Positions 15,274 through 58,084 of a stretch of 64,000 bases of DNA are shown piece by piece. Made by a program: the position numbers and the translations under genes. The stretch covers positions 1 to 64,000 of IMG/VR virus record IMGVR_UViG_3300023184_000072; one strand, written 5' to 3'. The DNA comes from a virus. Below the pieces are notes generated by a model that did no database searches, was not told the origin of the DNA, and saw nothing but the letters and a program-made list of their open reading frames with translations. Numbering within the stretch: position 1 is the stretch's first letter; every line of letters begins with the position of its first letter.

Positions 15274-15280
15274 TGTTCTT

Positions 15281-15487: not shown

Positions 15488-15505
15488 TATTTTTTAATAT
15501 CTTTT

Positions 15506-16330: not shown

Positions 16331-16331
16331 A

Positions 16332-18106: not shown

Positions 18107-18107
18107 A

Positions 18108-37000: not shown

Positions 37001-40000
37001 TTCCTGTTGTAGGAATAACAATTAAGTTTGCTTGGTTAGCAATAAGAGACTCATCAATTAATACATCACCAACATGGTTTTTTTCTTTAAGACCATTAGC
37101 ATCTTTTAATTCAATAGGAATACCATTTGATACAGAAAATTCAAATGTAGGAAACTCTGTAGCTCCTGCATTGAATAATGTTTTTCTATATTCACCCCAA
37201 GCTTTTGAGTAAGCTTCAGCTTCAGCTTGTTGGTCTTTTCTATATCTAGGATCACCTGATCTATTAAGTAAAGATGTTGTACGCATTGTTTGGAATATAA
37301 TCTTATTAAGATCAGTTCCTGGTTCACCCACTTTACCAATTCTCTCACCATTTTTGTTTACAAAGAATAAACCATCTACATCTTGTTCTACAAATACTTG
37401 TGCAACCCATCCAGAGTTAACATCATTAACTCCTTCAATAGAATCAATACTAGTAGAAGGATCTTTCTCATAAGACATCTGAACTATTCCATCAAGTTGT
37501 AATCCTTCAGCTTGTTTAGATGTAATTAATATAGATCTTAGTTTAGATCTATTAGGCATACCTGCAACATTGTTTAAAAACTCTCTTGAGTTTGTAATAA
37601 ATGGAGCAACTGCTACTGTAGGATTATCTTCTTCTGATGCTGATGAACTAGAAAGAAATAATATTGAAGCATCTGGAAGACGTGATTCTTTAACATTCTC
37701 TGCTGCTTCTGAATTAACTGAAGCAATAGTTCCTGACTTATGTTCAAGTTCTGTTTGTTCTTTAGCTATGTCTTCTTTATTCTTTTGTAATTTCTCTTGG
37801 TCTGTCTCAAGTTTTTTATATCCTGTTAATCTTTTTGGATCAATATTTAATATATCTCCATTAACATCTTCCACCTTAACTGTACCATTTTCATTAACAT
37901 TTAAAACTTTCACCTTAGATAAGTTAGTACTCTCATCAGTTAAGTCTTTAGCTTCTTCTTTAGCTTGTTCCTCAGTTTTATGAAAAGATATAGTTCCATC
38001 AGGAGCTGTCACTTGGTATCTACCATCAGCAATCTTTTTAATAGAAGCTTTCTTTGTAGCTCTCACTTCATAATCTCTACCTACTTCTAATTTTTCTTTT
38101 TGCTTATCTTTATTAACAAATGTAGGTTCAACTACATCTTTAGCATTTTCAGTTACAACTTCTTCTTTAGCAATATCTTCTGCTTGTTTGAAATATTTAT
38201 TAAATCCTTTTTCTGTAGCTAATTCATCAAATGCAACAGCAGCTTTTTTCTTATGTTCATTTAATTCATTTATACCAGCTCCATAATTATATAATTCTGT
38301 TGAATTTTCAAGACCTACAACATCATCTTTTGTACCATCTTGATTGTTTAATTCAAAGTTTAATAATGAATGAAATGTTTTTAAATCTAATTGTCCATTA
38401 TTTAAAGCTATTGTAATTTTTTCAGATGCTGTACGTAAAGCTTTAACTTGTTCTCTAGTAGCTTTTTTATCAGCAGGTGTAGTGTAATCAGTAATTGTAT
38501 TCATTAACTGATTAGCTTGCTCCTCATATGATTTAGATAGTTCTTGTAATGATTCTTTATTAGTAACATTAGCTAATGTACTATTAGTTACAAGAGGATT
38601 TACTGAAGATACTTTTTCTTGTATAGAATTAAGTCTTTCATTTACATCATCTTTTATTGTTCCATAATATGTAATGTCTTCTTTCCAATCTTCAAAAGTA
38701 GAATGGTTAAAAGCTTCAAGAGATTCTTCACCTGGTTTTGGATCTACAATATATCTAAATGGATTTTTAAATGTATTGTTGACAGCATTAGTTGTTTCTT
38801 TTATAGAATTAGCTTTGTTTATTAATGAGTCTACATACTCATTCACTGTATTCTTATTAGATGCATTGAAATCCATTCCAAAAGATTTTTGAAAATCTTC
38901 TTTAGTAAGATCTTTCAACATATTCAATTGTTCTATTGTAACATCATGCATCCCTGATGGAATACGTGATTGTACAAAATTAAAGAACATGTCATGTTTA
39001 AGATTTTTATATTTAAATACATTTCCAGTTGCAGCAGCATCTTTCATTTCTTTTGCTATAGCTGAAGAACTTAATGTATTATCATATTTATTAGAAAGAA
39101 TACCTGTCATTCCATATCTATTAAGAATGTTTATAGAAGAATTTAATCTTTTATCTTGACCGTTTCCTTTTTTATAATCATAAAATTGTTTAGCTCCTCC
39201 AGTTAATACAGCAGTAAGTCCACCAATAATCATATTATCAATACCTTCTGTTGTATTAAATTGTTGAGAAAGTCCATAAGTGGTTGAGCTCATTGCTTCA
39301 CTTAACCATTTACCATTCTCATAGTTTTTTTTATTATTTGGATCTTTATACTTTCTTGTATAATAATCATATGTTCCTTTCTCAGCAGCAAACTGTCCAC
39401 CTTCTTGATATACACCTTCAGATAATACATCAGCTAATTTAGGTTTAACAAAATCCCAAACTTTATTACCAACACCTGTAACAGCTTTCTTTTCAAATGT
39501 ATCAAGACTTCCTTCTTTAAGAGTTATTTTACCAGCTTCTTCAAGTTTTTTTGTAAGACTTCCTTGAATTCCTTTTTCTGCTGTTGTAAAAGATTTAAAT
39601 AAGTTATCAAACTGTATAGCATTTGATACAGTTAAAAGAGCCATGTTAATACCAAATCTAGTATTCATTGCATTAGTAGCATAGTCTTCTATTTCTTTAG
39701 ATGCTTCTGCTGTTAACTCTTCACCTGGATGATCTAATTCATATTGTTTTAATAATTCTTCTTTAACTTGTCTATATCCATCTCTACCTTCAACACCAGC
39801 TTCTGTCATAGAAGAACCTATAAGTCCTGCACCATATCTAAAACTATTTGTTAGTTTTGTATAAGCAGCTCCTTGTGCAAGTTTTTCAGCAGATAATAAA
39901 CTTTTTCCAACAACACCAGCTTCATTAGCTATGTCTAGCACTTTATCTACTTCATTAGATCCAGCAAATATTTTGTTTAAATATAAAGCAGCTTTACCTA

Positions 40001-40721
40001 TTTGTGCACCTATTAATGGAAGTTCTCCTATACCTTCTGTTATTGCTCCTATAGCAAGATCTTGTGCAGCTGCTCCTAACATAGCTCCTCCCATAAACCC
40101 AAGATTTTTAATAACAGATTCTCCCCAGAAGTTTGCTGATCCAGCAAATCCAGGAATCATTGCTAAATGAGGATGTTCTTTTTCATATCTTGTGTAATAG
40201 TTTGGAAAAACATTTTCCATGTTTTTTATCCAATTATCTATACTACCTTCATATCCATTTGGATCTCCAGATAGTTTTGAAAAATCTGCATTCTTTGCAG
40301 CTATATAAGTATTAGGAACATTAGAAAGCGATTGTGCAAATGTACCTACAGCTGTTACTCCTGCTTTAACAAGACTATGTCCTAGTTGAGAGAAAGCATT
40401 TTGTTGTAATCCATATACATTCTCAAGATCTTTATCTCTTTGAAACAATGGATACTTTTGATTTTCAATTAACTCTCCTCTTGTAACTACACCCATAGGT
40501 GAACTAAATGTAGGAGTTTTAATTGGAGCATTTGCAAGACTTGAAATTTCTTCAATACTGTTTCCTTTTCTACTAATTGTATTAGCTCCTAAATCTCCTC
40601 CAATAACAGGATTAAGACTTACATCAACTTCTCTTGTAGCAAGAGATGTTAGATCTGGTCTTCTTGGTGCTTCACCTCTATTAGAAACATTATCTATAAG
40701 TTCATTGTCAAAAATTGGCAT
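28053..40721 (-). CDS. Virion-packaged DNA-dependent RNA polymerase, crAss-like, multidomain (4222 aa)
   Basis: Catalytic GSDFDIDKL (DFDID at 30696-30710) preceded by GFRIPTQ; HEIGH zincin motif at 35433-35447; ART-like insert at about 34550-35100. Confidence 0.9.
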   Translation of the reverse strand: MPIFDNELIDNVSNRGEAPRRPDLTSLATREVDVSLNPVIGGDLGANTISRKGNSIEEISSLANAPIKTPTFSSPMGVVTRGELIENQKYPLFQRDKDLENVYGLQQNAFSQLGHSLVKAGVTAVGTFAQSLSNVPNTYIAAKNADFSKLSGDPNGYEGSIDNWIKNMENVFPNYYTRYEKEHPHLAMIPGFAGSANFWGESVIKNLGFMGGAMLGAAAQDLAIGAITEGIGELPLIGAQIGKAALYLNKIFAGSNEVDKVLDIANEAGVVGKSLLSAEKLAQGAAYTKLTNSFRYGAGLIGSSMTEAGVEGRDGYRQVKEELLKQYELDHPGEELTAEASKEIEDYATNAMNTRFGINMALLTVSNAIQFDNLFKSFTTAEKGIQGSLTKKLEEAGKITLKEGSLDTFEKKAVTGVGNKVWDFVKPKLADVLSEGVYQEGGQFAAEKGTYDYYTRKYKDPNNKKNYENGKWLSEAMSSTTYGLSQQFNTTEGIDNMIIGGLTAVLTGGAKQFYDYKKGNGQDKRLNSSINILNRYGMTGILSNKYDNTLSSSAIAKEMKDAAATGNVFKYKNLKHDMFFNFVQSRIPSGMHDVTIEQLNMLKDLTKEDFQKSFGMDFNASNKNTVNEYVDSLINKANSIKETTNAVNNTFKNPFRYIVDPKPGEESLEAFNHSTFEDWKEDITYYGTIKDDVNERLNSIQEKVSSVNPLVTNSTLANVTNKESLQELSKSYEEQANQLMNTITDYTTPADKKATREQVKALRTASEKITIALNNGQLDLKTFHSLLNFELNNQDGTKDDVVGLENSTELYNYGAGINELNEHKKKAAVAFDELATEKGFNKYFKQAEDIAKEEVVTENAKDVVEPTFVNKDKQKEKLEVGRDYEVRATKKASIKKIADGRYQVTAPDGTISFHKTEEQAKEEAKDLTDESTNLSKVKVLNVNENGTVKVEDVNGDILNIDPKRLTGYKKLETDQEKLQKNKEDIAKEQTELEHKSGTIASVNSEAAENVKESRLPDASILFLSSSSASEEDNPTVAVAPFITNSREFLNNVAGMPNRSKLRSILITSKQAEGLQLDGIVQMSYEKDPSTSIDSIEGVNDVNSGWVAQVFVEQDVDGLFFVNKNGERIGKVGEPGTDLNKIIFQTMRTTSLLNRSGDPRYRKDQQAEAEAYSKAWGEYRKTLFNAGATEFPTFEFSVSNGIPIELKDANGLKEKNHVGDVLIDESLIANQANLIVIPTTGTIVNSKGEIQKTPPGVPVLQYGDTIAFLNNRTFNDREAAGTYEVIKRLANTAVEQANTGQRVTLNRQFTTFLQNVLYWKSKDDTTSPNQIRIDIESMSLKLGNKSYPLSDIAQHEADIKEHLTEKAFISVNNKTLTDFAQAPFEEWYINKDGQFTSSKWTNYQTFLLAKTYPSGKARPSGDTPLSTSIAKPIPGRPYSFKQRYSTIAEPDSFNVQIITPVQKAKEEAPAGVEVPTLGEYVIDGTTSNPYIIDAGPVQFTAIEDADSNFNVEVESNETTAKLFADKPTFEKIKGALKAANRFDASIPLEEEEKYITDYLALRISAELDKLKAAAPAQEAPVAEEVVEEVSDIDDKKADIEKRRQEELKDKLTNFKKGSPAASISFEQSLDLLKANSYSVIDRIHQFNEGIATKFINLFNEINAKYDAEQAALETPTEKPVVPVQKKPGGDFRKVGLDENERMTEAELELFKEWHAENVPNIPFEVLENLIDTYDGEKAWGAFEDGVAKFVRGGLRGTEYHEIGHAIFKGMLSPEEQRALLDEFKSKSGTFTDRASRKKIAYADATDLQAEERIMDDFSEFRKGKLPARSLGEKVRRFFKAIMDFFKSFVVKPSLKEEFFKAIESGKFKERTLATPVVKEGVQEIFDSSPELTNIGTPQQYSQYIDSIFPDSQVKDIVYHANPSGEKILPNTRKEKFITNISAYLGGFFAKNEKDARDYGEDYEGNFYKANSYLINIPKISTRIDFESHNNLIDDLTIEGETPKSVESYARDLRKKFEGSGNGIIVEDYYGNDSEYIVFEPEQIHILGGKQDVEGFKNFVNNNPFSEYSRVSQLTAQQANNFVQDMTARAAGILFREGDKSLLFNPERITGTEMFGKIEDMLIEEGRRQLLSDKTWEDLKQEVRDQLRTRGINFNDEDVQSINNEESNKNDYAAEPFTLDTKKNSAPAVKFLCSTVIEREPSNQESAITLSTPLKNKYSKMTIEGNEIEGYKLLNFSRVFSTLLDKLSNTSSVGAFTNKLFNLAQDDSNYVSVFQKVGGKDKVVPFGEFNDNDWRLFVQFIQTFARQKPNALIQYKSADSVHTGAANLFTATQQTEKEWMTNIQTLAKGDGTIVKYINNKYVIDQDALKDMPIRKPKAMIAMLNAIGVTFDYDTYVKLKPSDKVGKNSFTDQVESIYGYFGSNNDLMSISGKTLDIGGPLSTLAELYNKVNNPSQESTYFGVEGQRIGAFSENNTPSVFENEFNESATIDQLKQSRPELNDVFSTGSQVLKKGGLFYDKDGNKIKDFKVSVIQGEENQDDDKGTSTSKLTIGDRFTMEINQNLNGKYYILIPADGSTEWMMNIGNNVSFDSIARNSYTDVNSIFKGYLMDDINLALDYTNREKLNNVGNLQKIEQLNKEFAALFTKKNKTEEDRKKLSDLAEEIDEIVNRPKQLRFFKDILAPKNLEAINEMIEDGRTLEEITAYVNDNISDINNSVKEFIDTMVVDTTNVLKANDKINPVGKDTYAYQDLDDNFLKAESLKKNSLSADDINHIITYANVNYIIANIEYHKILFGDPYQFAVKKGGALDETKRIKSFLSPRRTTFDSAEYNTYLNNNINNADGIKLTENDPGYHLHKSHTNTITVKDVITAGSLSAINSLYSKTNEADAVSWLMDTTHREIKLKNGQWDLQGPEEKWFQWEMAFTRQNLPGYEYTSEALRAHDVKLMETPRPKYTTEILKPIVSGNKFNKNNFDLILDKFSQVPIYYSMVKGTNLEKLYVQMKNQNIGYAIVESGRKVGAQELHSLYNGDGSFNTEAFSDESIVQVPWKAYGIQVETASSDNKSQTRGSQITKIASIDLFDNGIPTSPRAAEEYKRNTDILNAMHQNAYNELLNRLGIEDLGNGFVMKDGKSVSETLMREMMRREVSTNTKQTIKLNDENQFMIPFEASPSYVQIRSIVYSMIDKAIVSPKMNGGAHVQMPATMLESFTKGRSIVMKNKEGIWEKITKEKYETLTDEEKAGVMLTDESLKFYTKEQPYCEVLLPHWFKDKFKNKFKTDNELLKYLNGTEEGRSILSGIGFRIPTQALSSAEVFRVKGFLPQYMGATVVVPSEITTKAGSDFDIDKLNMYLKSVYVDRTGNIKLVRLQGDEQNTKDFYGKVFDDTLGVKQMKKADLIEALDIVVYGLEDPKGLLNIYGDYIKAKEEQYENPYEFRELIEKDLNKLTDKNLQAELRIEYVKDMYKKALENEYYDSLEKLITLPENFERLVSPVDDAGLKDAAGELDKLRGIDENKIPNRILNRNYMTNLRNSFLMGKRWVGVVAVNITNLSLRQKIQAYIDPAKFDGLSKEDQELLGDGSIVLKHNTTKVNGVDRISLGGTRTADGTNQLISNRLSGYATAVVDVAKDDFITRIIQSNLVIGTFMFLENIGAGEQSIYFLNQPIISEYLRIVNANNSSNLFYEDNINYAKSLFPSTQEEIDNANINVDGLKGNISKYAASKFNTKENGEQQAILKEFLKYAKMAEFNFDFTQATNYDTSRFGSGDMFARKELQTQKANDINIISSAKEILDNTFLGNQAKLLSASMQAMGAIFKLEQDNLRIITEDIMKTYAKNKYLSIDNFNKISNKAKMAFLDYIIQTKTGINSRTENLLVNAKTSVANRLEIAKQKYPDLQILKDLQVVPSERENGAKSVELRANIKDAYDEDLYTDMMRELRDYNADTKVLYRHLIALSILQGSYQSAISIKNIIPIEDYSTIVAPVVNSISSDETLKAFADGMFQRNNFNDALIMPRVTPFFKPKSVDYAAEILGLPSTTGYYSPSFPKIDSMNLQSIDRQVLVIGDKYNQKAMNSDYVAVPRVVKLKSGVRVDVLTGNTVTGANYAARKKKGDYSLNDVLGYKRVFLSTGEPLRILDKKGFPQSVYKLVNLYGDGNRATENYTDFRPSVIDNGTLKTTRELNDADIVSFYGGEIQEEVVSLPTEILTKSNTTDIVNALKENNIIDKNCKS

Positions 40722-43431: not shown

Positions 43432-46400
43432 TTATAGATTTTTAAAAGCTTTAACTATGTTACTATTTAAGTTTTTATTCTTAATAGTTTTTCCATCTCT
43501 AGCAGTACTCTTTTTTCCTTTAGAGTGTACACCTATAATATTTCCTTCAGAATCATATGAGAATTCTTTACCAGCTGCAAGTCCTTTACCTTTAGTACCA
43601 GATGCTACACCTTTTCCTGTTGTATCAAAATCTATATATCTAGGAAGTTTAATAATTCTACCATCAGGACCAAATGTATAATCTGGATGTTCAGCCATTC
43701 CAATATTATACTCCATGTTCTCTTTTTTGTTAGCAGCTTCTTTAGCATATAATGATGTTAATGCAGCTTCTGTAGTAGCTTTAGTATTAGATTTAGCTTG
43801 TGCTAGTTTATTAGCTGCATCCATATCTATTCCTAAGTTTCTAGCTCTATCTTGATTAACAGTGTTTATGTTATCATTATATACTCCTTGGTATCCTTGT
43901 TGGTTAATCTCAAATTCTTTAGAACCTATTTGATTCATAGCATCTGCTACACTAGCCATTATAGCTGATTGTGCTGCAGGATTATTTCCAGAATTCTTTA
44001 CAGCTTCTCTAGCTTGAGAAAGAACTGCATTTCTATCCTTATCTGCAGAATATTTATATGGGGTTTTTAACATAGAATACATATGATTTTCAGCTAATCC
44101 TTCAACTTGATTATTTGCAAGAGCATATAACTCAGGATTGATTTGATTACCTAATGGCATATTGAATGCAGGATACAATCCTCTAATTAAACTACTAGCT
44201 GCAGATGCCCAAGGAAATCCTTTCTTAGGAGTTTCTTCTATTGCTTCAAGTTCAGTAGCAGCTGGTTTAGTTGGTGTTGGAGTGATAGTTGGTGCTACTG
44301 CAGGTGTTGCATTTTTATCAATAATAGAATTTAATATTGTATGATAAGGTCCCACTTTTTTATCAGAAGCTAATTCATAAGCTTTAGCTATTTTTCCTGA
44401 CATAGTTTTTTCTTTATTTAAAACAGCTTTGACATCTTCTGCATCTTGTCCAGAATAGTTTTCAAGATCACTTATTAATTGTTTAGCTATTGTAGGATCA
44501 GAAAATGCTTTATCTCTTTTAGGTCCCCATTGTGTTTCATAATTTGAACCTTTAAAAATATCTCCTGCTGTATCTGGTGCATTATAATCTATTGAACCAG
44601 GAAGAGTTCCTTTTACTGCATATGTACCATCTTGAGCTTTTATTGTTTTACCATTTTTAGCAACTTGAGAAAGTTCTCCTTTAGCTAATGTATGACTCAC
44701 TTCTCCATTCTTAGCAAACTTCTCTTGAGAAACTTCTTTACCTAATAGGTTAGTTAAAAAATCAGTTGTTTGATGAATATGATCTTGGTAAGCAGCAAGA
44801 TTTTCTTTGTCTTTTGCTAGTTGTTTTAATTTCATATTAAGTCCTAGTGTTTGCACTTCTTTTGTTTTATCTCCTAATGCTCCTATTGCTGTATTAGATT
44901 TAGGAACATCACTTGTTATTTTTTCTAACTCACCTGTATATTTTTTTTCTTGAGGAACAATTATATTATTTACAACATGTTTAACTTTTTTGTTAGCATA
45001 TTTTTCAGGTAATTGGAATTGTTCTAACAAATCTTTATTAGTATTAAGATTACCATATACAACAGCACCATCATTTGTTATAGAAATAGGTTCATTAGTT
45101 TCTATTTCTACATCTGGTTCATCTCCCATGTCTCCACCATCTTTCATTATAGAAAGTCCTATACCTGTTCTTCCTTGTTCATCTTTTTGGAAATGAGAAT
45201 TACCATATGCATTATATGTAAGTCCTTCTCCTTCTGAATAAGGATTGTATGATACAGGTTTTACACCTTCCCCTCCAGGAAGATTTCCACCCCAATGAGT
45301 TTTTAATTCTCCACCATCAGCATAAGTTTCCATAGCTCTTTCACTTGGAGGAGTGTATTCTTTTAAATGTCCACCAGCTCTATATTTATGTGCATAGTCA
45401 GCAAAGTCTTCTGCAGTGTGATCACCAAACATTGCAATCACTTGAGGATTCCAATCATTACTAACCCAACCACCTTCTTTTCTAACACTTCCAAATTGTC
45501 CCATATTTTTCCACATAGAATTATCCATTATTCTTTGTTGTGTGTTAGCATTGCTTTGAGTTAATTTATTTATTTTTCCAGCATCACCAAATGCTTGATC
45601 AAGTCCTCCTCCTACTAATTGTAAAGCTAATCCTGCTCCTGGGAATGCCATATCTGCTAATGGAGCAAGTGCTCCTGCTGCTTGAAAACCAGCATTATTA
45701 TTATATCCAGCTCCTATTAAATTACTACCTAAACTATTGATAGGTCCCATTATATCCATTCCACCACCAGCTGCTCCTTCAAGATCTCCACCATCAGCAT
45801 ATTGTTTAACTTGATCAAGATCATCATATAATGTACCAGGAGCAAATGTATTAGAAATTTCTCCACCATCTTTATACATAACAAAGTTAGGAGTGAATGG
45901 TTGATTTAACATTCTAGGTGCAGCTTGTCCTAATTGTTTAGCTCCTTGTCCTAAATATCCTGCAGCTCTAGATCCTGCACCTTCTCCAATAGCAGTAGGA
46001 AATGCTTCATAAGAAACTTCAGGTAAACCTGATAATAATGTAGCAGCATTTAATGCAGCTTTAGGAGTAAGTTTTAATCCTTTCTTAATATGACTAAGGA
46101 TTCTTTGTTTATCTGTTTTGTTTGGATTATATCTATTAGCCATAACTTCTTTTCTGAATGCTTCAGAAGTTTCATCTTCTCTAGTTCCACTAGGATTAAG
46201 CACACTCTTAAAATCTCCAAATGCTTTACTAGGATGAGCCATGTAATATAAAGGTCTTTCTCCTAATAAATAATCATCATATTCTGCTTGAGATCTTTTA
46301 GCTTCTTCTTCTCTTTGTGTTTGATTTCTTTTATCAGTAGATAACATTGCATCACTACCCTTGTATTTAGGTTTACCTTTAAAGAAGTCTTCATAAGATT

Positions 46401-47481
46401 GTATAGGTTTTTTAATAGGTGCAAGTCTTCCTGTAGGAGTTTCTCTATGTTGTACAGGTGTACGTGATTGAGAACTATTTTTAGGAGGAGTACTTCTTAA
46501 GTTTTCTTTTTTGAATCTAGGATCATTTAATTCACTTAATAGTTTTGTGTTATCTTTAGCAGATCCTGTTGTATATCCAAGTCTTTTAGCTTCACTCCAT
46601 GGAAGTCCTGTTTTTGCAACCCAGTTATCTCTAGCAGATTTACTATCAATTTTAGGTGATTGTTTGATTGGTTGAATATCACTATCAGTCATATCATAAT
46701 AATCATATCCTTCAGAATCTTTTCCCATTCCTTCTACAAATCCTTCTTGAGCTTTTTGAATGTTTAAACCATCTCTACCCACTCCTCTTAATATATCATA
46801 TCCTGTACCTTGAGAAGGATAGAACATATTTGTAGAAGCAGTATAGTTTTCTGGTCTATCTAATACATGTTTTTGATAACGATCATTTACATCAGTAGAT
46901 TTACTTAATTCTTCCATAGGTTTAAGTAAAGCTTCTTGCTGTTGAAGAGATTTTTTTTGTTTTCTTTCTGCTGCAAAAGCATTAAAAATTCCTGGAATAG
47001 CACCTGCTATACCTGCAACCATTTGAGGAGATATAGCACTTGAACCTTCACCTTTATAATCTTTACCACCAAGTCCACCTGTTACAGATTTATCTTCACC
47101 AAATACACCATTAGAAATTTTTCCAATTCCTTTTTGTATTGCTGGATTATTTTGCATAAACTGTTGTCCATAGTTTTGCATAGCAAAAGGATTACCTGAA
47201 GATTGAAAAGTATTACCAGCCATCTGTTGTGTACTAGGTGCACCAAATGATGGAGTGGATGACATATTACTACCAAAGTTCCATTGGTTCTGTGGACCAA
47301 ATGATTGTCCAAAATAATTTGGACTACCAGGAGTATTTGTTGCATTGTAGTATCCTGATTGTGCTTTCTTAATAGACTTAGCTTCAGGGTGAGCTTTAAA
47401 GAAAGCTGCTTCTGTTGGATACTTCTTGTAAAATGCTGCTTCAGATTTTACTCCTGCAATTTTTAAAATTTGTGACTTCAT
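43432..47481 (-). CDS. Low-complexity modular cargo-like virion protein with KAQxG / xxGG motifs (1349 aa)
   Basis: KKAQSG, QKAQEG, YKDGG, YADGG (x2), RKEGG, YRAGG, MKDGG, AKNG (x2), KAQDG, ARDG; Gly/Ala-rich hydrophobic segments. Confidence 0.65.
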   Translation of the reverse strand: MKSQILKIAGVKSEAAFYKKYPTEAAFFKAHPEAKSIKKAQSGYYNATNTPGSPNYFGQSFGPQNQWNFGSNMSSTPSFGAPSTQQMAGNTFQSSGNPFAMQNYGQQFMQNNPAIQKGIGKISNGVFGEDKSVTGGLGGKDYKGEGSSAISPQMVAGIAGAIPGIFNAFAAERKQKKSLQQQEALLKPMEELSKSTDVNDRYQKHVLDRPENYTASTNMFYPSQGTGYDILRGVGRDGLNIQKAQEGFVEGMGKDSEGYDYYDMTDSDIQPIKQSPKIDSKSARDNWVAKTGLPWSEAKRLGYTTGSAKDNTKLLSELNDPRFKKENLRSTPPKNSSQSRTPVQHRETPTGRLAPIKKPIQSYEDFFKGKPKYKGSDAMLSTDKRNQTQREEEAKRSQAEYDDYLLGERPLYYMAHPSKAFGDFKSVLNPSGTREDETSEAFRKEVMANRYNPNKTDKQRILSHIKKGLKLTPKAALNAATLLSGLPEVSYEAFPTAIGEGAGSRAAGYLGQGAKQLGQAAPRMLNQPFTPNFVMYKDGGEISNTFAPGTLYDDLDQVKQYADGGDLEGAAGGGMDIMGPINSLGSNLIGAGYNNNAGFQAAGALAPLADMAFPGAGLALQLVGGGLDQAFGDAGKINKLTQSNANTQQRIMDNSMWKNMGQFGSVRKEGGWVSNDWNPQVIAMFGDHTAEDFADYAHKYRAGGHLKEYTPPSERAMETYADGGELKTHWGGNLPGGEGVKPVSYNPYSEGEGLTYNAYGNSHFQKDEQGRTGIGLSIMKDGGDMGDEPDVEIETNEPISITNDGAVVYGNLNTNKDLLEQFQLPEKYANKKVKHVVNNIIVPQEKKYTGELEKITSDVPKSNTAIGALGDKTKEVQTLGLNMKLKQLAKDKENLAAYQDHIHQTTDFLTNLLGKEVSQEKFAKNGEVSHTLAKGELSQVAKNGKTIKAQDGTYAVKGTLPGSIDYNAPDTAGDIFKGSNYETQWGPKRDKAFSDPTIAKQLISDLENYSGQDAEDVKAVLNKEKTMSGKIAKAYELASDKKVGPYHTILNSIIDKNATPAVAPTITPTPTKPAATELEAIEETPKKGFPWASAASSLIRGLYPAFNMPLGNQINPELYALANNQVEGLAENHMYSMLKTPYKYSADKDRNAVLSQAREAVKNSGNNPAAQSAIMASVADAMNQIGSKEFEINQQGYQGVYNDNINTVNQDRARNLGIDMDAANKLAQAKSNTKATTEAALTSLYAKEAANKKENMEYNIGMAEHPDYTFGPDGRIIKLPRYIDFDTTGKGVASGTKGKGLAAGKEFSYDSEGNIIGVHSKGKKSTARDGKTIKNKNLNSNIVKAFKNL

Positions 47482-47487
47482 AATATA

Positions 47488-50202
47488 TTAGTATTGGTCC
47501 AACCATCCACCTGGTTGTTTTGTGTTATAGTTTGTAAAGTTAGTTAATTGATCTAGATTAACCAAACCTTTTTGTTCTTGTCTTAATCCATTTTTAGCCA
47601 TAGGAAACTCTGTAACTTTCTTTCCTTTAAACTTATAGTTTTTTCCTGGCTTCATTAGTTTAGTATCTCCTTCATCTGATATACCAAGAACAGGATAAGG
47701 AACTCCTTCCATTGTTATATCATTAGAACCTATTTCTGTTATCTCTCCTGGATGATCCCATTGTCCTCTATCATCTTTAATGATTCCTCCATCTCTTTGT
47801 TTAATATATTCTCCTTTATTTTTTATAATAGTAGGTATATTTTCATTACCTGAATAATATGATAATGTAGCTCTATGGTGACCATCATTTATTTGATAAC
47901 TTCCATCTGGTAATTCGCTAATGTTAATTGGTTCTTTTTCTAAAAATTTTTGATATTTTGCAGCGTCATTAGGATTATTTTTTAAATGTTCAACCATCTC
48001 TTTAAGAGTAGGTTGACCTGGTTTTGCACTTTCTACTTCAATACCAATGCTTTTCAAAATATCTCTTGCTCCTTCTGATGTAGCACCTTGATTACCAATA
48101 CTACCACTTGGTTTACGAACATTGTTTAAATCAAATAATTCAAAATTATTATTAGGTAAATCATTAATATCTATAACAGATGAACTTCTTAATATAGAAC
48201 GAGGATCTTGTACAGGTGTGCTAGGATTCATTCTAGCTTTCTGTTCATTAAACCATTTTATATATTCATCTTCTTGATGTGGTATATACTCACCTATTTG
48301 AGATTCACCTATACGTGAGAAATATGGTTCTAAACCTTGTTCAGCCTCTGCAACATATGGTTTGTAATTACCTATTGATTCAGCAATTGTAGGAACTTTA
48401 TAATCTCCTACAATAGGTAAAACTCTTTTTGAATTTATAAAGTTTTTACCAGCATTTAATCCTTTTGAAATGTATGGTGCTAAAATTTCTTCACCTGCAC
48501 CAAATGCTAAAGGTTCTGCAAAAGCCATAGCAGCTTGTCCATAATTACCTCTATTAATATTATCTGGAAATGCACCTAGTTTATTAGCCATTGAACCTAA
48601 CCATGCAGCAGGATTTATATAATCATCAAATACATTATCATTTAAAGATAATCTCATATGTGTATCTATAGCACCATTAGCATCTTTAAAATCTTGTGTA
48701 GAATTAAATTGTCCTCTACCTTGAGCAAGTATCTCTTTACGCATTCTTGCTTTTCTTTCTAACTCTTTATCAGACAATCTTGCATCAGTTTCTCTTTCTG
48801 ACTGAGTTCTTTTATCAGTAGATAGCATTGCTTGATTAAGTGTGTTACCATAACCTGCAGCTTTACTTTTAGCTATAGCTGCTTTAAACTCTGCTAAAGA
48901 ATCTCTTGTACCTCCACCTACTTTTGTACCTCCTTGAGCTACATCATAACTATTTAACCATTCACCATCTTTTGCACTAGCCATTGTTTTCTTTGCATAT
49001 GGACCATTACTAGGAGCAGGAGATTGTGTACGTGCATAGGAGAAACCTACAGCTCCTGGAATAGAACCACCCATTGCATGTTTTTTATACATATTATCTT
49101 TATCTCTATATCCATCTGGAATTAGATTATTATCAGATAAATATTTTATTGTTTCACTTTTTTGTTTTTTAGACATAAAAGGAGTTGATCCAATAGTTGC
49201 TCCAACCATATTATTCAATTGATCTTCTGCTCCTTCTTTAATTGTATCCCACATACTATAAGGACGTTTAACTGTACCTCTGTTAGGTTCAATTAATTCA
49301 TGACCAAGTCCTGCTGCACTACCTCCTAAAAATCCTGCTGCTTGTGGTATTCCTATATATTGCATCCATGAAGGAAATTTATTTTGAATAGCTTCAGATG
49401 TAAATCTACCAGCCATTGGATGTCTAATATTATCTGTTTGATCTTCTCCTGGATCTGTATATTCATCAGCAGCTTGTTCAGCTTTTTGCATAGGATGATC
49501 TAACCAATCTTCTACTTTATCTTGAATATTTTTCTTTTTATTATTTTTCTTACCATTCTGTGCTTGAGGAACATAATTAACTGGATAGACAGATCCACCC
49601 ATTTGTTGTTTAAGAGCTGCTGGTTTTTTACGTAAAGGTTTTCTATCACCCATGTCTGAAAGCACACCATGTTTTTGAGCTTTTATTAAAAGATCATGTT
49701 GATTCTCTTCTGAGATAGGTAATGTTCCTACAATACTTCCTATAAAATTATTATACAAATCAGATCCATGTTCTTTCCAACTATTTGGTGCATTAAGTTC
49801 ATGAGCTGCTCCTGCAATATTAGTACCTATAATTTTCAATGGTGCAACCCCAGGAATAAAGTTTGTCCATCCAGGTAATGCAGAAGACATAGCAGCAGCA
49901 CTTGATGAATGTCTTATAGCATCTAATCCTCCATTATGTGAACCTGTATTAATTCCTTGTTGCTGAGCTCTTCTAGAAGCTCTTTCTTTTACTGGATCTA
50001 TATATTCTTTTAAAAGTTCTTTTTCTGTGTTACTAAATTTCTTTTTTAAATAACCACCAGTTTGAAACTGTCCACCCCATGCAGGAGAATAGTTTCTACC
50101 TACATTGCTATATCCATCTCCTTGAAAACCTTCAGGAGCAGAAGCTTGTGAATCATTGTAATTATCTTCTTCACCGTAATTATCTAACCAACCTTTTGCC
50201 AT
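47488..50202 (-). CDS. Modular cargo-like protein with two D..RH/HE/NN helical domains and a ParB/Srx-like domain (904 aa)
   Basis: DAIRH...HE...DLYNN.IG and DNIRH...HE...DQLNN.VG; PI.....DG.Y.I.DGHHR; segments delimited by QTGG, QMGG, AQNG, AMGG, AKDG, RDGG and AKNG. Confidence 0.65.
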   Translation of the reverse strand: MAKGWLDNYGEEDNYNDSQASAPEGFQGDGYSNVGRNYSPAWGGQFQTGGYLKKKFSNTEKELLKEYIDPVKERASRRAQQQGINTGSHNGGLDAIRHSSSAAAMSSALPGWTNFIPGVAPLKIIGTNIAGAAHELNAPNSWKEHGSDLYNNFIGSIVGTLPISEENQHDLLIKAQKHGVLSDMGDRKPLRKKPAALKQQMGGSVYPVNYVPQAQNGKKNNKKKNIQDKVEDWLDHPMQKAEQAADEYTDPGEDQTDNIRHPMAGRFTSEAIQNKFPSWMQYIGIPQAAGFLGGSAAGLGHELIEPNRGTVKRPYSMWDTIKEGAEDQLNNMVGATIGSTPFMSKKQKSETIKYLSDNNLIPDGYRDKDNMYKKHAMGGSIPGAVGFSYARTQSPAPSNGPYAKKTMASAKDGEWLNSYDVAQGGTKVGGGTRDSLAEFKAAIAKSKAAGYGNTLNQAMLSTDKRTQSERETDARLSDKELERKARMRKEILAQGRGQFNSTQDFKDANGAIDTHMRLSLNDNVFDDYINPAAWLGSMANKLGAFPDNINRGNYGQAAMAFAEPLAFGAGEEILAPYISKGLNAGKNFINSKRVLPIVGDYKVPTIAESIGNYKPYVAEAEQGLEPYFSRIGESQIGEYIPHQEDEYIKWFNEQKARMNPSTPVQDPRSILRSSSVIDINDLPNNNFELFDLNNVRKPSGSIGNQGATSEGARDILKSIGIEVESAKPGQPTLKEMVEHLKNNPNDAAKYQKFLEKEPINISELPDGSYQINDGHHRATLSYYSGNENIPTIIKNKGEYIKQRDGGIIKDDRGQWDHPGEITEIGSNDITMEGVPYPVLGISDEGDTKLMKPGKNYKFKGKKVTEFPMAKNGLRQEQKGLVNLDQLTNFTNYNTKQPGGWLDQY

Positions 50203-51069: not shown

Positions 51070-52578
51070 TTAAGGGGTAGTTGTAGTGGTAGTTGTTGTA
51101 GAAGAAGAACTAGATGTAGTGGTAGTAGTTAATGGTATCTCAGCAGAGAAACAAGATGAAACTTGTGTAATTGAAATTGGATTATAAGTAAATGTTTCTG
51201 CAGGTAATAAATCATATGGATTAGTTTTATCTAATAACCAAGATGCACCTTCTGTATCTACAATAAATAACCAACAATTACATTCGTATAAGTTAGCAGG
51301 AGTAATTGCAGTTATTTCTATATCATATTCTATTGTTCCTAATGGATAATCATATTGTGTTAAATAGTAACTACTAGTCATACTATCTTGATTGATCAAT
51401 AATAATTTACTATTACTTGTAAGAATTAAATTACCAATAGCTATTCTATTTGTAATTAAAGTAAATATAGATGTTAATGCTTCTGTATCCATATTTATTT
51501 CAACCACTTCATTAGTTGTATCATTCACTGCTATTACTACATCATCATTTTTAGCAGTGATTCCAGAGTTGATTGTAAATCCTACAGGAAATGCAATATT
51601 TTTATTATATGTAGCATCAAAAGGAATAAGTGTTATATCCCATTGATGGAACTCTGTATCAACACTCCATAAATAATTTTTAGTCATTGCTATTCCTATT
51701 CCAGGAGTGTAGTTAGGAACATTAAGTAATTCCATAGGTTGTCCTAAATTATGATAATATATATTTGTTCCTGAACTAATTAGTGCTGTACAACAATTAT
51801 CTATATATGGAGCAGTGGTTGTACTAGTTGTTGTAGCATTACAATCACAATCTACAATTTCTAATATAACACCACCTGATACACGATATGCAAATTTACC
51901 ATATACACTTTCTTCAGTGTAATACCATCCATCAGGAACAAATGTACAATCTGTTAAAGTGGAATCGTAATAAACAATTTGATTAACTTCATAAGAAGCA
52001 GCTTGTGTACTAAATCCTGTTACTGTAACACCTAAAGGTTGTAAAATTAAAAATGAAACTGCATTACAAACATCTTGTAAACTATTTGATGAAACTACTG
52101 CTGGTTCTGTTCCAACTTGATAACCTGTACCAAAATTATTAGATTGTAAATTAGAAGGTCTTTGGCATATAGTGGTAGTAGTTGTAGCAGGAACTGTAAT
52201 AATTGCTGTACCATCCATGTTACAATCTGTTATAATTATTCTTCCATCTATACCACAATCTAATGTTGTTGTACTTGTAGTGGTAGAAGGAGAAGGATAG
52301 TATGTTGTAGTGGTACTAGTCATAGGTGGATTCTTATCCATCACTCCAGCAATAGCTTGAAACCCACCAGCTAACCCATCATCACAACATCCATTAAGTC
52401 CTGAATAGAAGAAGTTATTCTCTCCTATATAGAAGTTAGGAATATAGCTATGAAAGGATATCCATTTTTGAGTGTTTAAATTATACGACATAGTCCAACT
52501 CTTATTACAAAAGTATTCGGGATCTTCAAGATAAACTTGTGTACGTATAACTACTTTATTTATATTATCTTCAGCCAT
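51070..52578 (-). CDS. Tail stabilization protein, middle part, fused to Thr/Cys-rich modules
   Basis: N-terminal L.D..YF.NKSWT.SY.....WISFHSY.P.FY; then Thr runs, Cys modules, a beta-rich domain and a poly-Thr end. Confidence 0.6.
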   Translation of the reverse strand: MAEDNINKVVIRTQVYLEDPEYFCNKSWTMSYNLNTQKWISFHSYIPNFYIGENNFFYSGLNGCCDDGLAGGFQAIAGVMDKNPPMTSTTTTYYPSPSTTTSTTTLDCGIDGRIIITDCNMDGTAIITVPATTTTTICQRPSNLQSNNFGTGYQVGTEPAVVSSNSLQDVCNAVSFLILQPLGVTVTGFSTQAASYEVNQIVYYDSTLTDCTFVPDGWYYTEESVYGKFAYRVSGGVILEIVDCDCNATTTSTTTAPYIDNCCTALISSGTNIYYHNLGQPMELLNVPNYTPGIGIAMTKNYLWSVDTEFHQWDITLIPFDATYNKNIAFPVGFTINSGITAKNDDVVIAVNDTTNEVVEINMDTEALTSIFTLITNRIAIGNLILTSNSKLLLINQDSMTSSYYLTQYDYPLGTIEYDIEITAITPANLYECNCWLFIVDTEGASWLLDKTNPYDLLPAETFTYNPISITQVSSCFSAEIPLTTTTTSSSSSTTTTTTTTP

Positions 52579-52589
52579 TGGATTAATCT

Positions 52590-55500
52590 TTATGAAGTTG
52601 TGGTAGTTGTTGTAGTAGGTTGAATTATATCATATACTGTCTCAATATAAAACTCTCTTTTTACAGGATCATATTTAACATCTTTATCAATAGGAATATA
52701 ATCTAGTTTAGTAATAATAACTCTTTCAAATTTACTATCATATACTCCATGTAATCCAATACCATTAAAATTATTATCTATATCTACTTTTGGAAAGTAT
52801 CTTTGTATTTCAAATGATAAATGATCTGTCATAAATCTATTTACACCAGAACCAAATCCCCCTATCTCATTAATCTTTACACCTTCAATTAAAAATATCT
52901 GTCCTCTTTTAGCATCTACTGTAACTTGTCCTTGTGGAATTTTAAGAAAGAATTTATTTTGACTTCCTACAAATCCAAGATCTGTTTCAGCAAAATCAAT
53001 AGGTGGAGTTTCTCCAAATAATTTAGTTCCTCCTAAATAAGCAGCTTTTGGATTTGTAGAATTCATTGTTAATAAGTTATTATATAACAATGATTTATTT
53101 TCAAATCTAGCAAGTACAGCTTTGTTTTGAATACCATCTAATGATATAAGATTTCCATAGTTTTGAGGAAAATCAAATAAAGCTGTTGGAGAATATCTTA
53201 ACCAATTATTAACTCTTACATCTACATTCTGTTCTTGTGCATCAGAGTAAATAGCTCTAAATGGATAGTTTGTAAAACATAATTGATTAGTCCAATCTGC
53301 AGGAAGATGACTGAAATAATTTTCTTTATTCTGTTTAGAATATGTTGGATTATAATGATATGTATTATCAAATGTAATAGGTACAAATGTTTCTTGTACC
53401 CAGTTATCAGGAATACCTGTTGTTACATGTGGCCAAAAATCACCTTCTCTATTATTAAATGCTTGTCTTAAATCTGTATTATAAGAACTCTCGCAATAGA
53501 AGTTAGGAATACCATATGCAAATAAATAAAAGTATCCATCATAATAAGTTCTATATGTTCCATTTATCCCATCAATTCCTTCAGAAATTTTAGCAGGGTC
53601 TGTAGGACAATCAAAACTATGTGCTTTAACTGATATTATATTTTTAAAATTACGACCATCTCTATTGAAGTCATATAATATAGATCTAGATGAATGCCAA
53701 TATTTAGGATAGGCAATATTACCTAACTCATCATAAAATATTTCTGAATCATCTGGAGAATTAACTCTATTATCTATAAAGAATGGAAGCTTAGTTTTGA
53801 ATGCAAAACGAGAGATGAATGTATCACCACCAAATACAGTGAATGATGATTTATAATTTGGAGAATTAAATATTTGTTGTGCTCCAGTATCAACAGTTTG
53901 ATATGAATATATTTGTCCCCATTGATTAGTTATTACATTTTTTAAAGATGCATAATAAGAAACAACTGTTATATCTTTTTGATTTTCTGGAGAGTTACAA
54001 TTATCAAAATCTGTTATTGTTTTTCTAGATATATCTGTTATATAAGGAATTGTTCCATTTAATAAAGATGGTGTTTCACTAGGAAACAATAATGGATCTA
54101 CAACATTACTATTTCTTTTTTCTAATGTCTTTAAGTATATAGATGTTTCTCTTTGATAATTGTTTATACTAATTCCACTTGGTTCCCCAACAGATTGAAC
54201 AACAGGAATTAAATATTGTTTTAAGTCAAGTTCTCTTTGTTTAATACCAGTGCTATTCCCAACAGTAACATTATTATCTATATCTGCAGAATAATCATAA
54301 CTAGCTATAGAGTTATATGAATAAGCATAATTTTTTCTTAATATACCATTTATAAAAAGTTGTAAATAAGTTTGGTATCCTGTAAACATTGCTATTGCAT
54401 TGAAAGGATCAGTAATTGCTGCAATATTATAAGAACTGTTTAAAGCATCTTTTTGAGCTTCATATGAAAGAAGTCTATATTTTGCATTACTTCTAACATT
54501 AACATGATGAGCAGTTCCTGCACCATACATTACATTCTCTAGTTTAAGAATACTTCCTAAGAAAGGTTGTCCAAAAGATGTTTCTGGAGAATTAAATACT
54601 TGTCTATATTTAAGATCTTTTTTTGCAGGATTAAAAGAATCTATAGGAATTTCTTTTCCACAGTCTTTTGTGCTTCTTCTTCCAATTGTAGGATTATAAA
54701 TATCACCACCTGGACCAAAATCAAATACACCTGGAGCACTTGTTACATTACCTTGTTTTTGTTTACTATAAGCACATTGACATCCAACAGGACTCCAATC
54801 ACCATTTATACCTCTATTACTACAATCATCACCTGGAGCATCATCAACATTTACTCTTGAATACACATCACCTCCTCCTGCAAACCAACCATTACCTTTT
54901 ACCCAAGGATCTTTATAAATATATGTAGAATTATTATTTGTAAAAGGATCATTCCATTGTACATGAAATCCTCTACAACCTATAGATTCTGTATTCCATA
55001 CATCATAATTTGCAGGACCTATATACATAGTATCTGGATAATTAGCAAATGGTCTTGTTCCAGAACATATTTCTATCATCTCACCAACTGGTACTTCTAT
55101 AGTTGTAGGTCTTCCTGTTTCTAAACTTGTATATACATATGTAGGAACTTTAGTTAGATCATTAGTCACTCCTTTATAACAATATATAATCCATGGTTTA
55201 GCTTCTTGAATCCATGCATTATTTGTTTCATCTATAAATGGATCTACATTAAGATCATTATATGGATAGTTTGGATAATAGTAGTCTTGATTTTCTCTTT
55301 TATAAGATCCAACATTTCTAAGAATACCTTTTGCTATAATTGATTTATTGGTTGATCTATCTCCTCTTATTATTTTAAATCCAACAATATTATCTTTCTG
55401 CTCTTGTGTAAGAGAAGATGTTTGTATTAGTGAATGAATTTGATAAGAATCTACATTAATACCTAATGGATATACTGAATCATTTTGCATTACCACTTTA

Positions 55501-57109: not shown

Positions 57110-58084
57110 TTAGTTATTACGTCTTCTACCATATCTATTAGTACGGTTAGGAAGTTCATACATATTAAATCTATTCAAATCGTTTTTGATTCTTCTTTGT
57201 TTCTCCCAAGGAGTTTGTTTCTTAATTTCTATATCAGCCATAATGAATGATTCTTCATATGCTTGTTTATGATATACGAGTTTTTGTTGTAACTGATTGA
57301 AAGTTTCATCATTAGTTTGGTTAGTAAGCATTTCAAACACTTTAAACTTAATAAATGCTTCTACATATTCTCTTATACGATAGTTATCAGGAATCATTTG
57401 ATTTCCTATTTCATCATATTCTGTAGAATAGAATAATAAGTGAACTGTTCCATTTCTGAAATTTGTAACAAACTTATTATCTCTAATATCAAAACTATCA
57501 TAGCTAGCAGCTCCAGGAGTGAATTCATGAATAGGAGGAGCTTGAGCATACATTTCCCAATTGTTTGTATAGTCTACACCACAGTTTTGTCTTGCAGATA
57601 TATTTCCAGGTTTTAATAAATACTCATGAGTAAATTGTCTAGCTGTACTATTATTTGTTTTATAAACAGCTTGTACTAATTCTGGCATACATGTACCATC
57701 ACATTGTGGAACTTGACAACCAGGTCTGTTACAAGGTGTACCTCCAATAGTTAATGGAGCAATTTGTATAGTGGTTGCACTAGCTGCTTGAGAATAAAAT
57801 GAGTTAGCATCTTGATATGGAAAACCATTCACTGCTGTACACATCCAAGCTTCTCTTACAGCATAGAAGTTATCAGGAAGTCTAGCTTGAAAATCTTCTA
57901 TATAAAGAATCTCTTCACTTATAACAAATGTAGTTCTTCCTAACTTCTTTAGAGCTTTGTCTAAGTAAGTAGGAAATAAAAGATCATCTATTGCACCAGT
58001 ATCAAAATAACTTTTCAGTTCTTCTTTTACAGTTGAATAAATAGGTTCAGGCGATATAAAATTATATTTATAGTAGTAACTCAT
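57110..58084 (-). CDS. Tail tubular / ring protein (crAss Ttub-like)
   Basis: Position between the IHF-like and stabilization genes; A.LP..F, TNF..G.V.L.Y......G..MIPD pattern. Confidence 0.6.
   Translation of the reverse strand: MSYYYKYNFISPEPIYSTVKEELKSYFDTGAIDDLLFPTYLDKALKKLGRTTFVISEEILYIEDFQARLPDNFYAVREAWMCTAVNGFPYQDANSFYSQAASATTIQIAPLTIGGTPCNRPGCQVPQCDGTCMPELVQAVYKTNNSTARQFTHEYLLKPGNISARQNCGVDYTNNWEMYAQAPPIHEFTPGAASYDSFDIRDNKFVTNFRNGTVHLLFYSTEYDEIGNQMIPDNYRIREYVEAFIKFKVFEMLTNQTNDETFNQLQQKLVYHKQAYEESFIMADIEIKKQTPWEKQRRIKNDLNRFNMYELPNRTNRYGRRRNN

Follow-up and report, generated by a model that had tools for sequence, protein, structure and literature searches.

Two adjacent genes of a crAss-like phage, P0001 (43432-47481, minus strand, 1349 amino acids) and P0002 (47488-50202, minus strand, 904 amino acids), encode proteins with short glycine-rich motifs that are conserved and lie mostly outside folded domains, and in three protein families cassettes have been gained, lost and swapped exactly at these motifs. 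Both genes lie in the window, the 64,000-nucleotide stretch that forms the first 64 kb of the 86,304-base viral record IMGVR_UViG_3300023184_000072, for which CheckV estimates a completeness of ~75%. The reading that we favour, with moderate confidence, is that P0001 and P0002 belong to the cargo (ejection) proteins carried in the virion of a freshwater crAss-like phage and that their cassettes are exchanged at conserved joints. P0001 would begin with a conserved N-terminal module, followed by a single swappable cassette and a conserved, extended Gly-Gly (GG) region leading to a domain of portal-binding type and a helical C-terminal part, and P0002 would represent an extra, lineage-specific cargo slot in which independently folding cassettes are set between three conserved, probably disordered joints and a C-terminal beta domain that is likewise conserved. 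The joints would act as peptides, either as flexible tethers or as docking segments, and could make it possible to store a string of payload domains in the portal and tail and to thread it through them, in the manner proposed for gp45 of crAss001 (Bayfield et al. 2023, PMC10172136). Their DNA, 80-98% identical among phages, would at the same time offer homologous recombination points at which cassettes can be exchanged in frame.

Homologs of P0002 numbered 1039 at E<=1e-3 among 8000 proteins scored; the best 120 were listed and 119 homologs were used. An AlphaFold2 model based on a 63-row alignment (mean predicted local distance difference test score, pLDDT, 56.8) has five folded blocks, at residues 62-185, 221-366, 436-493, 707-756 and 805-871, and each of the eight motifs is located within or bordering one of the segments with pLDDT <50 between these blocks. 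The parts of P0002 are given below from the N-terminus; HSP denotes a high-scoring segment pair in the alignments with homologs.

50053..50202, minus strand: joint J1, residues 1-50, starting MAKG-WLDNYG and ending SPAWGGQFQTGG; predicted disordered, pLDDT <50.
49609..50052, minus strand: cassette A, residues 51-198, DUF6973-like and helical, with DAIRH; it holds folded block 62-185 and occurs in 43-64 of the 119 homologs.
49552..49608, minus strand: joint J2, residues 199-217, QQMGG-SVYPVNYVP-QAQNG; 17 HSPs start at 200 and 12 end at 217.
49081..49551, minus strand: cassette B, residues 218-374, a second DUF6973-like cassette, with DNIRH; it holds block 221-366 (pLDDT 74-95) and occurs in ~51-57 of the 119 homologs.
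48928..49080, minus strand: joint J3, residues 375-425, HAMGG...SAKDG...VAQGG; predicted disordered, pLDDT <50.
47800..48927, minus strand: cassette region C, residues 426-801, helical plus low-confidence sequence, with DGHHR; in 41-68 of the 119 homologs.
47491..47799, minus strand: C-terminal module, residues 802-904, comprising QRDGG, a beta domain (805-871), MAKNG and the tail QPGGWLDQY; pLDDT 91-96.

The joints and the C-terminal module are what the family has in common. Residues 21-40 of J1 are shared by 113-116 of the 119 homologs, residues 381-400 of J3 (in which 13 residues are nearly invariant) by 115-116 and residues 821-860 of the C-terminal module by 117, and residues 61-340 and 421-780 are common to only 41-77. 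The alignments break at the motifs, with 33 HSPs stopping exactly at G50 and others ending at 413-414 and 419-425 in J3. Altogether 252 of the 501 internal HSP boundaries are no more than 6 residues away from one of the eight motif glycines, compared with 57+-31 for eight random positions and a mean of 34 for eight other glycines, and in neither control was 252 reached in 5000 trials. One homolog (P0004) fuses residues 6-50 straight to 370-904, and three others (P0022, P0025, P0026) have ~800-1100 extra residues directly behind MAKNG. With the C-terminal 105 residues alone as query, 3401 cluster representatives (clusters at 50% identity) matched at E<=1e-3, 416 of them at <=1e-30; the 150 best matches are 64-100% identical within the module and belong to proteins of 156-1720 amino acids, in which the module is almost always C-terminal. 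In the 15 loci examined of the 74 that were fetched, gene order is kept, the 288-residue neighbour is full length with 63-75% identity and the slot between it and the C1-like gene is always occupied, by a P0002 homolog of 528-1515 amino acids in which 158-781 of the 904 P0002 residues are covered. The P0002 orthologs are not colinear and most motifs lie outside folded domains, so that neither of the refuting conditions named in the preliminary description of the two proteins was borne out. Cutting the 120 proteins (P0002 and the 119 homologs) at the motifs gave 437 segments of at least 60 residues, which fell into 31 families and 67 architectures. The beads-on-a-string construction with gain, loss and swapping of cassettes, which that description had proposed, is supported by these mosaic homologs and by the metagenomic contig described below.

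At the DNA level, median identity among the 74 viral loci was 76% for J1 (in 49 loci), 94% for J2 (in 23, with a range of 87-100%), 81% for J3 (in 39) and 87% for the C-terminal domain (in 52), whereas cassette DNA was matched over at least 70% of its length in only three (A), one (B) and none (C) of the 74. Synonymous divergence was taken as codon differences at identical residues, which avoids the short-match detection bias of a blastn-based estimate, and was lowest in J2 (0.149, over 19 codons), followed by J3 (0.242), J1 (0.278) and the C-terminal domain (0.306); for backbone genes the values were 0.307 (ring 1), 0.344 (muzzle) and 0.372 (the 288-residue gene). A strong synonymous homogenisation of the joints was rejected save for J2, the joints and C-terminal module spanning 0.15-0.31 compared with 0.31-0.37 for the backbone. 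A recombination site fixed at the DNA level was likewise ruled out for the motif, since the codons differ among the 38 listed instances. The sole codon bias is in the first glycine of the GG motifs, encoded 30 times by GGT and 12 times by GGA as against 160 and 152 for all glycines of these genes, a preference that may reflect the avoidance of GGAGG inside genes. The proposal that the motifs are recombination joints therefore stands in so far as the points of exchange coincide with them and the DNA of the joints is kept where that of the cassettes is not, but less well in that synonymous divergence is near that of the backbone everywhere except J2. Because synonymous divergence is only modestly below that of the backbone and the codons vary, the joints are conserved mainly as peptides.

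These same observations bear on a simpler view, namely that the motifs are generic flexible linkers made of Gly, Asn-Gly and Asp-Gly turns, with no partner and no signal, and that cassette edges are found there because breaks anywhere else would destroy folds. Low pLDDT at the motifs, the variable codons with no fixed DNA site and a synonymous divergence that for most joints is near that of the backbone are all what such linkers would give. Linkers drift, yet the residues around the glycines are 88-100% conserved in proteins that are only ~30-70% identical overall, joints of 20-50 residues are 80-94% identical in proteins that otherwise share nothing, and the same junction occurs in three unrelated families and almost nowhere else in the genome. 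We regard generic linkers as distinctly unlikely.

Contigs of four metagenomic runs from four studies, placed at >=90% identity, provided an independent view. Words sampled from the P0002 gene were present to 96% in one run, possibly that of the source sample, and to 9-18% in 22 others, and summed contig depth was high on the C-terminal module, J3, J2 and the end of J1 and approximately zero on cassettes A and B and most of C. A 2129-nt contig from one run (X5) goes from 49557 directly on to 49073 and thereby leaves out 483 nt (161 codons) in frame, so that J2 is joined to J3 without cassette B. Further contigs connect J1 or J3 to distant joints through a stretch of unassigned sequence.

All the motif strings given in the preliminary description were found in both proteins at the places indicated. 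A loose regular expression was derived from that same list, and is hence post hoc; applied to 44 open reading frames (ORFs) it found 14 sites in P0001 against 3.6 in shuffled sequences (equalled by none of 300 shuffles) and eight in P0002 against 2.2 (equalled by two of 300), with comparable enrichment elsewhere only in the ORFs at 4720-5529, 5885-6856 and 6859-7236. Stricter patterns were derived from a sequence logo of 919 GG sites found across the 120 proteins and tested on the 66 non-nested ORFs of the 86-kb genome. Pattern A, [FMYLIVW][KQAR]xGGx[ILVFM], had 11 sites in six proteins (3130 residues) and six in the other 60 (23,067 residues), an odds ratio of 13.6, and pattern B, [KQ]A[QK][DENSQ]G, had 11 sites in the six proteins and none in the other 60. 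In P0001 the strict patterns found eight sites where 0.26 were expected, a number reached by none of 2000 shuffles. The motif is genuine and confined to few proteins, and its copies in P0002 are degenerate and looser; the significance of the motif in P0002 comes from comparison with the homologs.

A pattern of this kind might in principle arise from chance together with metagenome assembly chimeras at repeated sequence. The motif is loose, the strict patterns show only weak enrichment in P0002, and conserved joints of 47-300 nt could mislead assemblers. The count in P0001 is nevertheless beyond all 2000 shuffles and the motifs are conserved in homologs; several P0002-family architectures are found on 4-17 contigs each, and junctions of joint to joint recur in many proteins as well as in the contig from an unrelated run. 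Chance and chimerism together are a very improbable explanation.

P0001 presents a different picture from P0002. Of 262 homologous proteins at E<=1e-3 the best 119 were analysed, and these are largely colinear with P0001: the first 250 residues have counterparts in 97-113 of them and residues 551-1325 in 114-119 (over most of that length in all 119), and coverage drops to only ~50 over residues 280-500, with 25 HSPs beginning at residue 541. P0001 is thus for the most part a conserved, colinear ejection protein in which a single cassette varies, and not a free string of cassettes. Its parts, again from the N-terminus, include the following.

47353..47481, minus strand: N-terminal module, residues 1-43, ending IKKAQSG, with K38-Q41 conserved.
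45877..46740, minus strand: variable cassette, residues 248-535, between QKAQEG (242-247) and YKDGG (536-540); low homolog coverage.
45310..45876, minus strand: GG-motif region, residues 536-724, with five [Y/R]xxGG sites around a Gly/Ala-rich hydrophobic stretch; mostly pLDDT <50.
44746..45309, minus strand: portal-binding-like domain, approximately residues 725-912, whose fold matches 7qog_M; pLDDT 80-96.
44626..44661, minus strand: doublet AKNG-KT-IKAQDG, residues 941-952, in a low-pLDDT segment that follows a helical domain.

Conservation across the 119 homologs is high at the motifs themselves, reaching 91% for K38, 94% for K39, 95% for A40 and 88% for Q41 in the N-terminal module, 99% for G539 (62% for G540), 97% for G564/G565, 100% for G670/G671, 99% for G703/G704 and 97% and 100% for G723 and G724 in the GG region, and 93% for A941, 100% for G944, 91% for K948 and 88% for G952 in the doublet. 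In an AlphaFold2 model built for residues 150-1349 (alignment of 108 rows, mean pLDDT 60), eight of the 10 modelled motifs fall in segments with pLDDT <50. Residues 378-402 of P0001 and 458-482 of P0002 share a stretch AMLSTDKRxQxxRE... (14 of 25 residues identical, E 2e-4) that lies inside a variable cassette in each protein, and this hints at exchange between the adjacent genes.

Taken across the P0002 family, the motifs follow a regular order. The gap from a GG-type motif to the next NG-type motif is short (median 34 residues, 179 of 302 being <=45), and that from an NG-type to the next GG-type motif is long (median 172, 170 of 203 being >=80). GG precedes the core of J2 in 71 of 72 cases, that of J3 in 52 of 58 and the C-terminal domain in 57 of 64, and the 285 occurrences of WLDxY follow GG in 207 cases and a single G in 32. 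The sequence downstream of a joint is very varied (the 75 cases recorded after J3, for instance, include 57 different 8-mers), and one joint often adjoins another directly. In the homolog consensus ...YPVNYVPxAxMGGSxPGAVGF... J2 and J3 run on uninterrupted, so that most relatives have them as a single continuous joint. The GG and NG motif types represent two sides of the same junction, approximately hydrophobic-[KQA]-x-G-G-x-hydrophobic, which marks the ends of modules. A cassette sits within the junction and carries its own copy of it, as is seen for cassette B, which lies between AQNG and AMGG where most homologs have an unbroken AQMGG.

The third family in which this junction is found consists of small, very basic proteins encoded at some distance from P0001 and P0002:

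4720..7721, minus strand: four lysine-rich small proteins (269, 323, 125 and 160 residues) and a 92-residue ORF, with LKSGG-AIKK-AQNG and similar motifs.

No Pfam or PHROG family was found for the four lysine-rich proteins, nor any PHROG family for P0001 or P0002, and tblastn of P0001 and P0002 against the INPHARED phages gave no match. Homologs of the 323-residue protein were present in 27 loci as 23 unique sequences, in five of which an N-terminal module ending STLK[AS]GG directly abuts, at K[AS]GG, a C-terminal module beginning M[IL]KRADGS; most of the others have inserts of ~50-210 residues between the two modules, the edges of which are the motifs. The C-terminal module includes ...KRADGSxSKRGLWDNIRANKGSGKKPT, and in one locus (L101) it is joined to an N-terminal module of P0001 type (...FKKAQTG). 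The 92-residue ORF (5607-5885, minus strand) corresponds to the C-terminal ends of eight functionally uncharacterised PHROG families (e.g. phrog_727, E 1.6e-35, positions 350-430 of 450), a conserved C-terminal module that is elsewhere joined to far longer proteins.

P0001 is read as the counterpart of the crAss001 cargo protein C1 (gp45) on the basis of its gene slot, a fold match and two weak profile hits. As with gp45, its gene comes after that for the muzzle and before the RNA polymerase genes, and it has a domain whose fold matches the portal-bound one. In a fold search independent of Foldseek, the chain 7qog_M, which is the portal-bound segment of gp45 (residues 425-552), ranked second of 48,161 chains, with 118 of its 126 residues aligned to residues 741-912 of P0001 (model residues 592-763) at a root-mean-square deviation (rmsd) of 3.5 and 14% identity. 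Foldseek searches of the Protein Data Bank (PDB) with the whole P0001 and P0002 models, which are long and half of low confidence, gave nothing at E<=0.001. The [FY]GG motifs of gp45 are at residues 209, 332, 427 and 562, and the segments of it that are reported as resolved in the crAss001 virion are 214-245 and 425-552, the latter bound to the portal (PMC10172136). The first begins just past an [FY]GG, and the second begins at one and so contains AFGG. Like P0001, gp45 has Gly-rich hydrophobic stretches, and [FY]GG motifs stand before its resolved segments. P0001 differs from gp45 in its length (1349 against 842 residues), in having a swappable cassette and in that sequence similarity is marginal, and in crAss001 no gene corresponding to P0002 separates the muzzle gene from gp45.

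The preliminary description also held the motifs to be processing sites. On this explanation they would be cleaved, after GG or A[QK]xG, by a protease acting at maturation or after ejection, and the cassettes and the small basic proteins would be freed. In its favour, the sites are conserved, exposed and Gly-rich, and hydrophobic residues are found upstream of them and at P2'. Only probable internal proteins carry them, some of these small and very basic, and the C-terminus of P0002 lies five residues beyond a GG. Most P0002 homologs have a zinc-ribbon leader (37 residues) and NMKNGG ahead of WLDNYG, and 18 of the WLDxY occurrences among the 120 proteins are preceded, as in P0002, by the start MAKG, which stands at the very point where the others have the leader and NMKNGG. 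Internal proteins of T4 are cut behind a capsid-targeting leader. Another parallel is adenain, which cleaves the core and capsid precursors of adenovirus at (M/I/L)XGG|X (PMC4246237), precursors that are likewise internal, in part very basic and furnished with repeated hydrophobic-x-GG motifs. In the proteins described here, however, the hydrophobic residue lies one position further upstream: over the 919 GG sites it peaks at P5 (F/M/Y), with Q/A/K at P4, whereas in adenain sites it is at P4. No candidate protease was found in the 75%-complete record, with no match for MPTase-PolyVal (PF18818), C39 (PF03412), C48 (PF02902), S78 (PF04586) or the 'aspartyl protease' gp66 of crAss001, although Peptidase_C5 (PF00770) was not searched for and absence is to that extent not shown; Pfam on 39 further ORFs of the record gave just an M15 cell-wall peptidase. 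The joints are moreover conserved over 20-50 residues, which exceeds the needs of a cleavage site. An AFGG also stands at the start of the resolved segment 425-552 of gp45, the available part of PMC10172136 contains no terms for cleavage or proteolysis, and by analogy one such site that is intact in virion gp45 weighs against cleavage. Cleavage at the motifs is possible, but processing is so far unsupported and we consider it unlikely. A broader form of the same idea, to which we give equally little credence, is that the junction is a recognition code of all internal proteins of the lineage, read by an unrecognised virion-associated or host protease. Were this true, the cargo polyproteins and the small basic DNA-associated proteins would be split into payloads after assembly or ejection, a phage counterpart of the polyprotein maturation of adenoviruses and asfarviruses, and the same code would serve as the in-frame exchange point for payloads.

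Exchange of cassettes at the conserved joints of two cargo proteins remains the reading that we prefer, but a number of points weigh against it. That P0001 and P0002 are present in the virion and ejected is probable from gene position and from likeness to gp45, and that likeness is itself limited. The fold match to 7qog_M, with a Z score of 8.0, is middling by the search tool's own scale and amounts to moderate support; the two hhalign matches, which are colinear, are weak (P0001 1160-1206 with gp45 679-729, E 1.1e-4, probability 57%; sub-profile P0001 712-825 with gp45 408-500, E 0.0085, probability 4.7%), and pairwise BLASTP of P0001 against gp45 was not significant. In P0002 the strict patterns found just two sites against 0.17 expected, a number reached in 23 of 2000 shuffles and thus a weak enrichment. 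Recognisable domains had been said to fall cleanly between the motifs, and most motifs do lie outside the folded blocks of the AlphaFold2 models, but in P0001 MKDGG (779-783) is in a loop of a beta domain and FAKNG (922-926) is at the end of a helix; both fall within insertions absent from 70-78% of homologs. The 252 coincident HSP boundaries come from related homologs and are not independent events, and the segment families and architectures were obtained by crude single-linkage clustering. J1, J3 and the C-terminal domain are near backbone divergence, so that recent recombination is not demonstrated there, and J2 alone gives an indication of recent exchange; identical boundaries could also result from selection against breaks within domains, and some of the metagenomic contigs could be chimeric at conserved joints. 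A docking or threading role for the joints is what we infer, low pLDDT being no proof of disorder.

The nature of the cassettes is a separate question. The preliminary description regarded them as effectors, which is plausible but thinly supported, Pfam having identified only DUF6973 (eight of 39) and ART-PolyVal (two of 39) in the long homologs. Residues 72-161 in cassette A of P0002 match DUF6973 (PF22322) at E 4.2e-4 and 20.3 bits, under the 27-bit cut-off, and at the fold level the D..RH blocks match DUF6973 proteins of BFVD (prob 1.00, TMt 0.55-0.57), so that cassette A is likely a distant member of this family. The ParB-like label that had been given to part of cassette region C was not confirmed: its basis is the string DGHHR alone, no Pfam family was found at E<=0.1, pLDDT is <50 over DGHHR, and a PDB sequence search with P0002 gave no match at E<=1 and no ParB among the five matches at E<=10. 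Cassette A (P0002 residues 54-191) also resembles BteO (9uu0_B), a type VI secretion system effector of Bacteroides fragilis (Z 10.6, rmsd 3.8, 121 residues aligned), with Wnt8A at Z 10.1. BteO binds the C-terminal domains of OmpA, and an Arg-His pair is among its key residues (PMC12541434). The D..RH cassettes might target the envelope as BteO does, but this is a lead only, as helical bundles reach such Z scores by chance.

The general concept of multidomain phage proteins that are injected together with the DNA is already covered by polyvalent proteins, and it is the grammar of the joints that appears undescribed in the literature searched. Polyvalent proteins have from two to 15 distinct domains in a polypeptide and are encoded by phages or conjugative elements (Iyer et al. 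2017, PMC5512222). Like P0001 and P0002 they are large and multidomain, are encoded beside virion genes, are thought to enter the host with the DNA and have shuffled domains. Multiple domains are present here, with the five folded blocks of P0002 and the 67 architectures in 120 proteins. Of the characteristic polyvalent domains (ART-PolyVal, MPTase-PolyVal, DdrB-like ParB and others), ART-PolyVal occurs in the two long homologs mentioned and weakly in the 4222-residue protein described below, ParB was not detected, and MPTase-PolyVal, the zincin-like protease by which processing was proposed in that paper, had no match in the record; P0002 itself has just the sub-threshold DUF6973. The part of PMC5512222 at hand describes no conserved junction motif, disordered joints or shared C-terminal anchor, and mentions neither 'linker' nor 'crAss'. 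Nor was the junction motif described in the literature searched on crAss-like cargo, Crassvirales polyvalent proteins and phage Gly-Gly cleavage, a search whose scope did not extend to subscription journals and supplements.

Polymorphic toxins offer a second comparison. Their junctions, VENN in CdiA and PxxxxDPxGL in Rhs, mark the border between carrier and variable cassette, and recombination within their conserved coding sequence may replace the cassettes; each toxin has one junction, a variable C-terminal toxin and an immunity gene. The likeness lies in the short conserved peptide at which a conserved carrier meets a variable cassette, and the difference in that here there are several junctions in a chain, a conserved C-terminus, no evident immunity genes and the setting of a phage virion.

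crAss-like phages are among the most abundant viruses, and what they inject beyond DNA and RNA polymerase is poorly understood. The building plan proposed here would let related phages vary what enters the host. A grammar of anchor modules, joints and free cassettes should allow payload domains to be picked automatically across thousands of metagenomic proteins, giving a catalogue of candidate factors for early host takeover or for breaching the envelope, and a cassette site that is naturally in frame within an ejected protein would be a plausible spot for foreign payloads in phage engineering. It also provides handles that can be tested, namely the joints (by mutation or replacement), the anchor domain (for cargo tethering) and the GG sites (for cleavage).

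The genomic setting agrees with an assignment to the crAss-like phages, Pfam having identified CrAss_Ring_1 (57110-58084), CrAss_Ring_2 (58574-59302), Crass_capsid and a P22-like portal, with a weak match to Ring_3/4; the portal gene is at 73523-76108 of the genome. On the minus strand the order is ring 1, muzzle, 502 residues, 288 residues, P0002, P0001, 869 residues and the RNA polymerase proteins. Upstream of P0002 and P0001, a 1504-residue protein is muzzle-like, matching phrog_37948 and crAss001 gp44 (E 4e-5). Downstream of P0001, a neighbour of 4222 residues matches gp47 (E 2e-23) and gp50 (E 8e-21), which confirms the position just upstream of the virion RNA polymerase block given in the preliminary description; a further protein of 1688 residues matches gp49 (E 1e-4). 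The cargo proteins gp45 and gp46 of crAss001 are encoded at the corresponding place, after the muzzle gene and before those for the polymerase (PMC10172136). The 869-residue protein was considered as the counterpart of gp46 (C2), but shows no similarity to it and the assignment was dropped.

A few features of the neighbouring genes may be added. In the 4222-residue protein (28053-40721 of the window, minus strand) residues 98-704 and 1734-1866 match gp47 and residues 2879-3811 match gp50, so that two crAss001 polymerase-associated genes appear to be fused; there is also a weak match to ART-PolyVal at residues 1940-2043 (E 0.0019), under the cut-off. At 51070-57104 (minus strand) the muzzle-like 1504-residue protein and the 502-residue protein are separate genes in the window and in two related loci (L035 and L037), and in 13 of 15 related loci (from the series L001-L051) a single ORF of 1576-2028 residues spans the muzzle-like protein and part or all of the 502-residue one. 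The left of the window (1784-4543 and 11265-18142, minus strand) encodes a fragment of a DegT-type aminotransferase, a hexapeptide-repeat transferase and a BKACE enzyme. Also encoded there, in a region of raised G+C (0.41), are a 660-residue protein that has a Fib_succ_major domain and, in tandem, three Gly_rich_2 paralogs.

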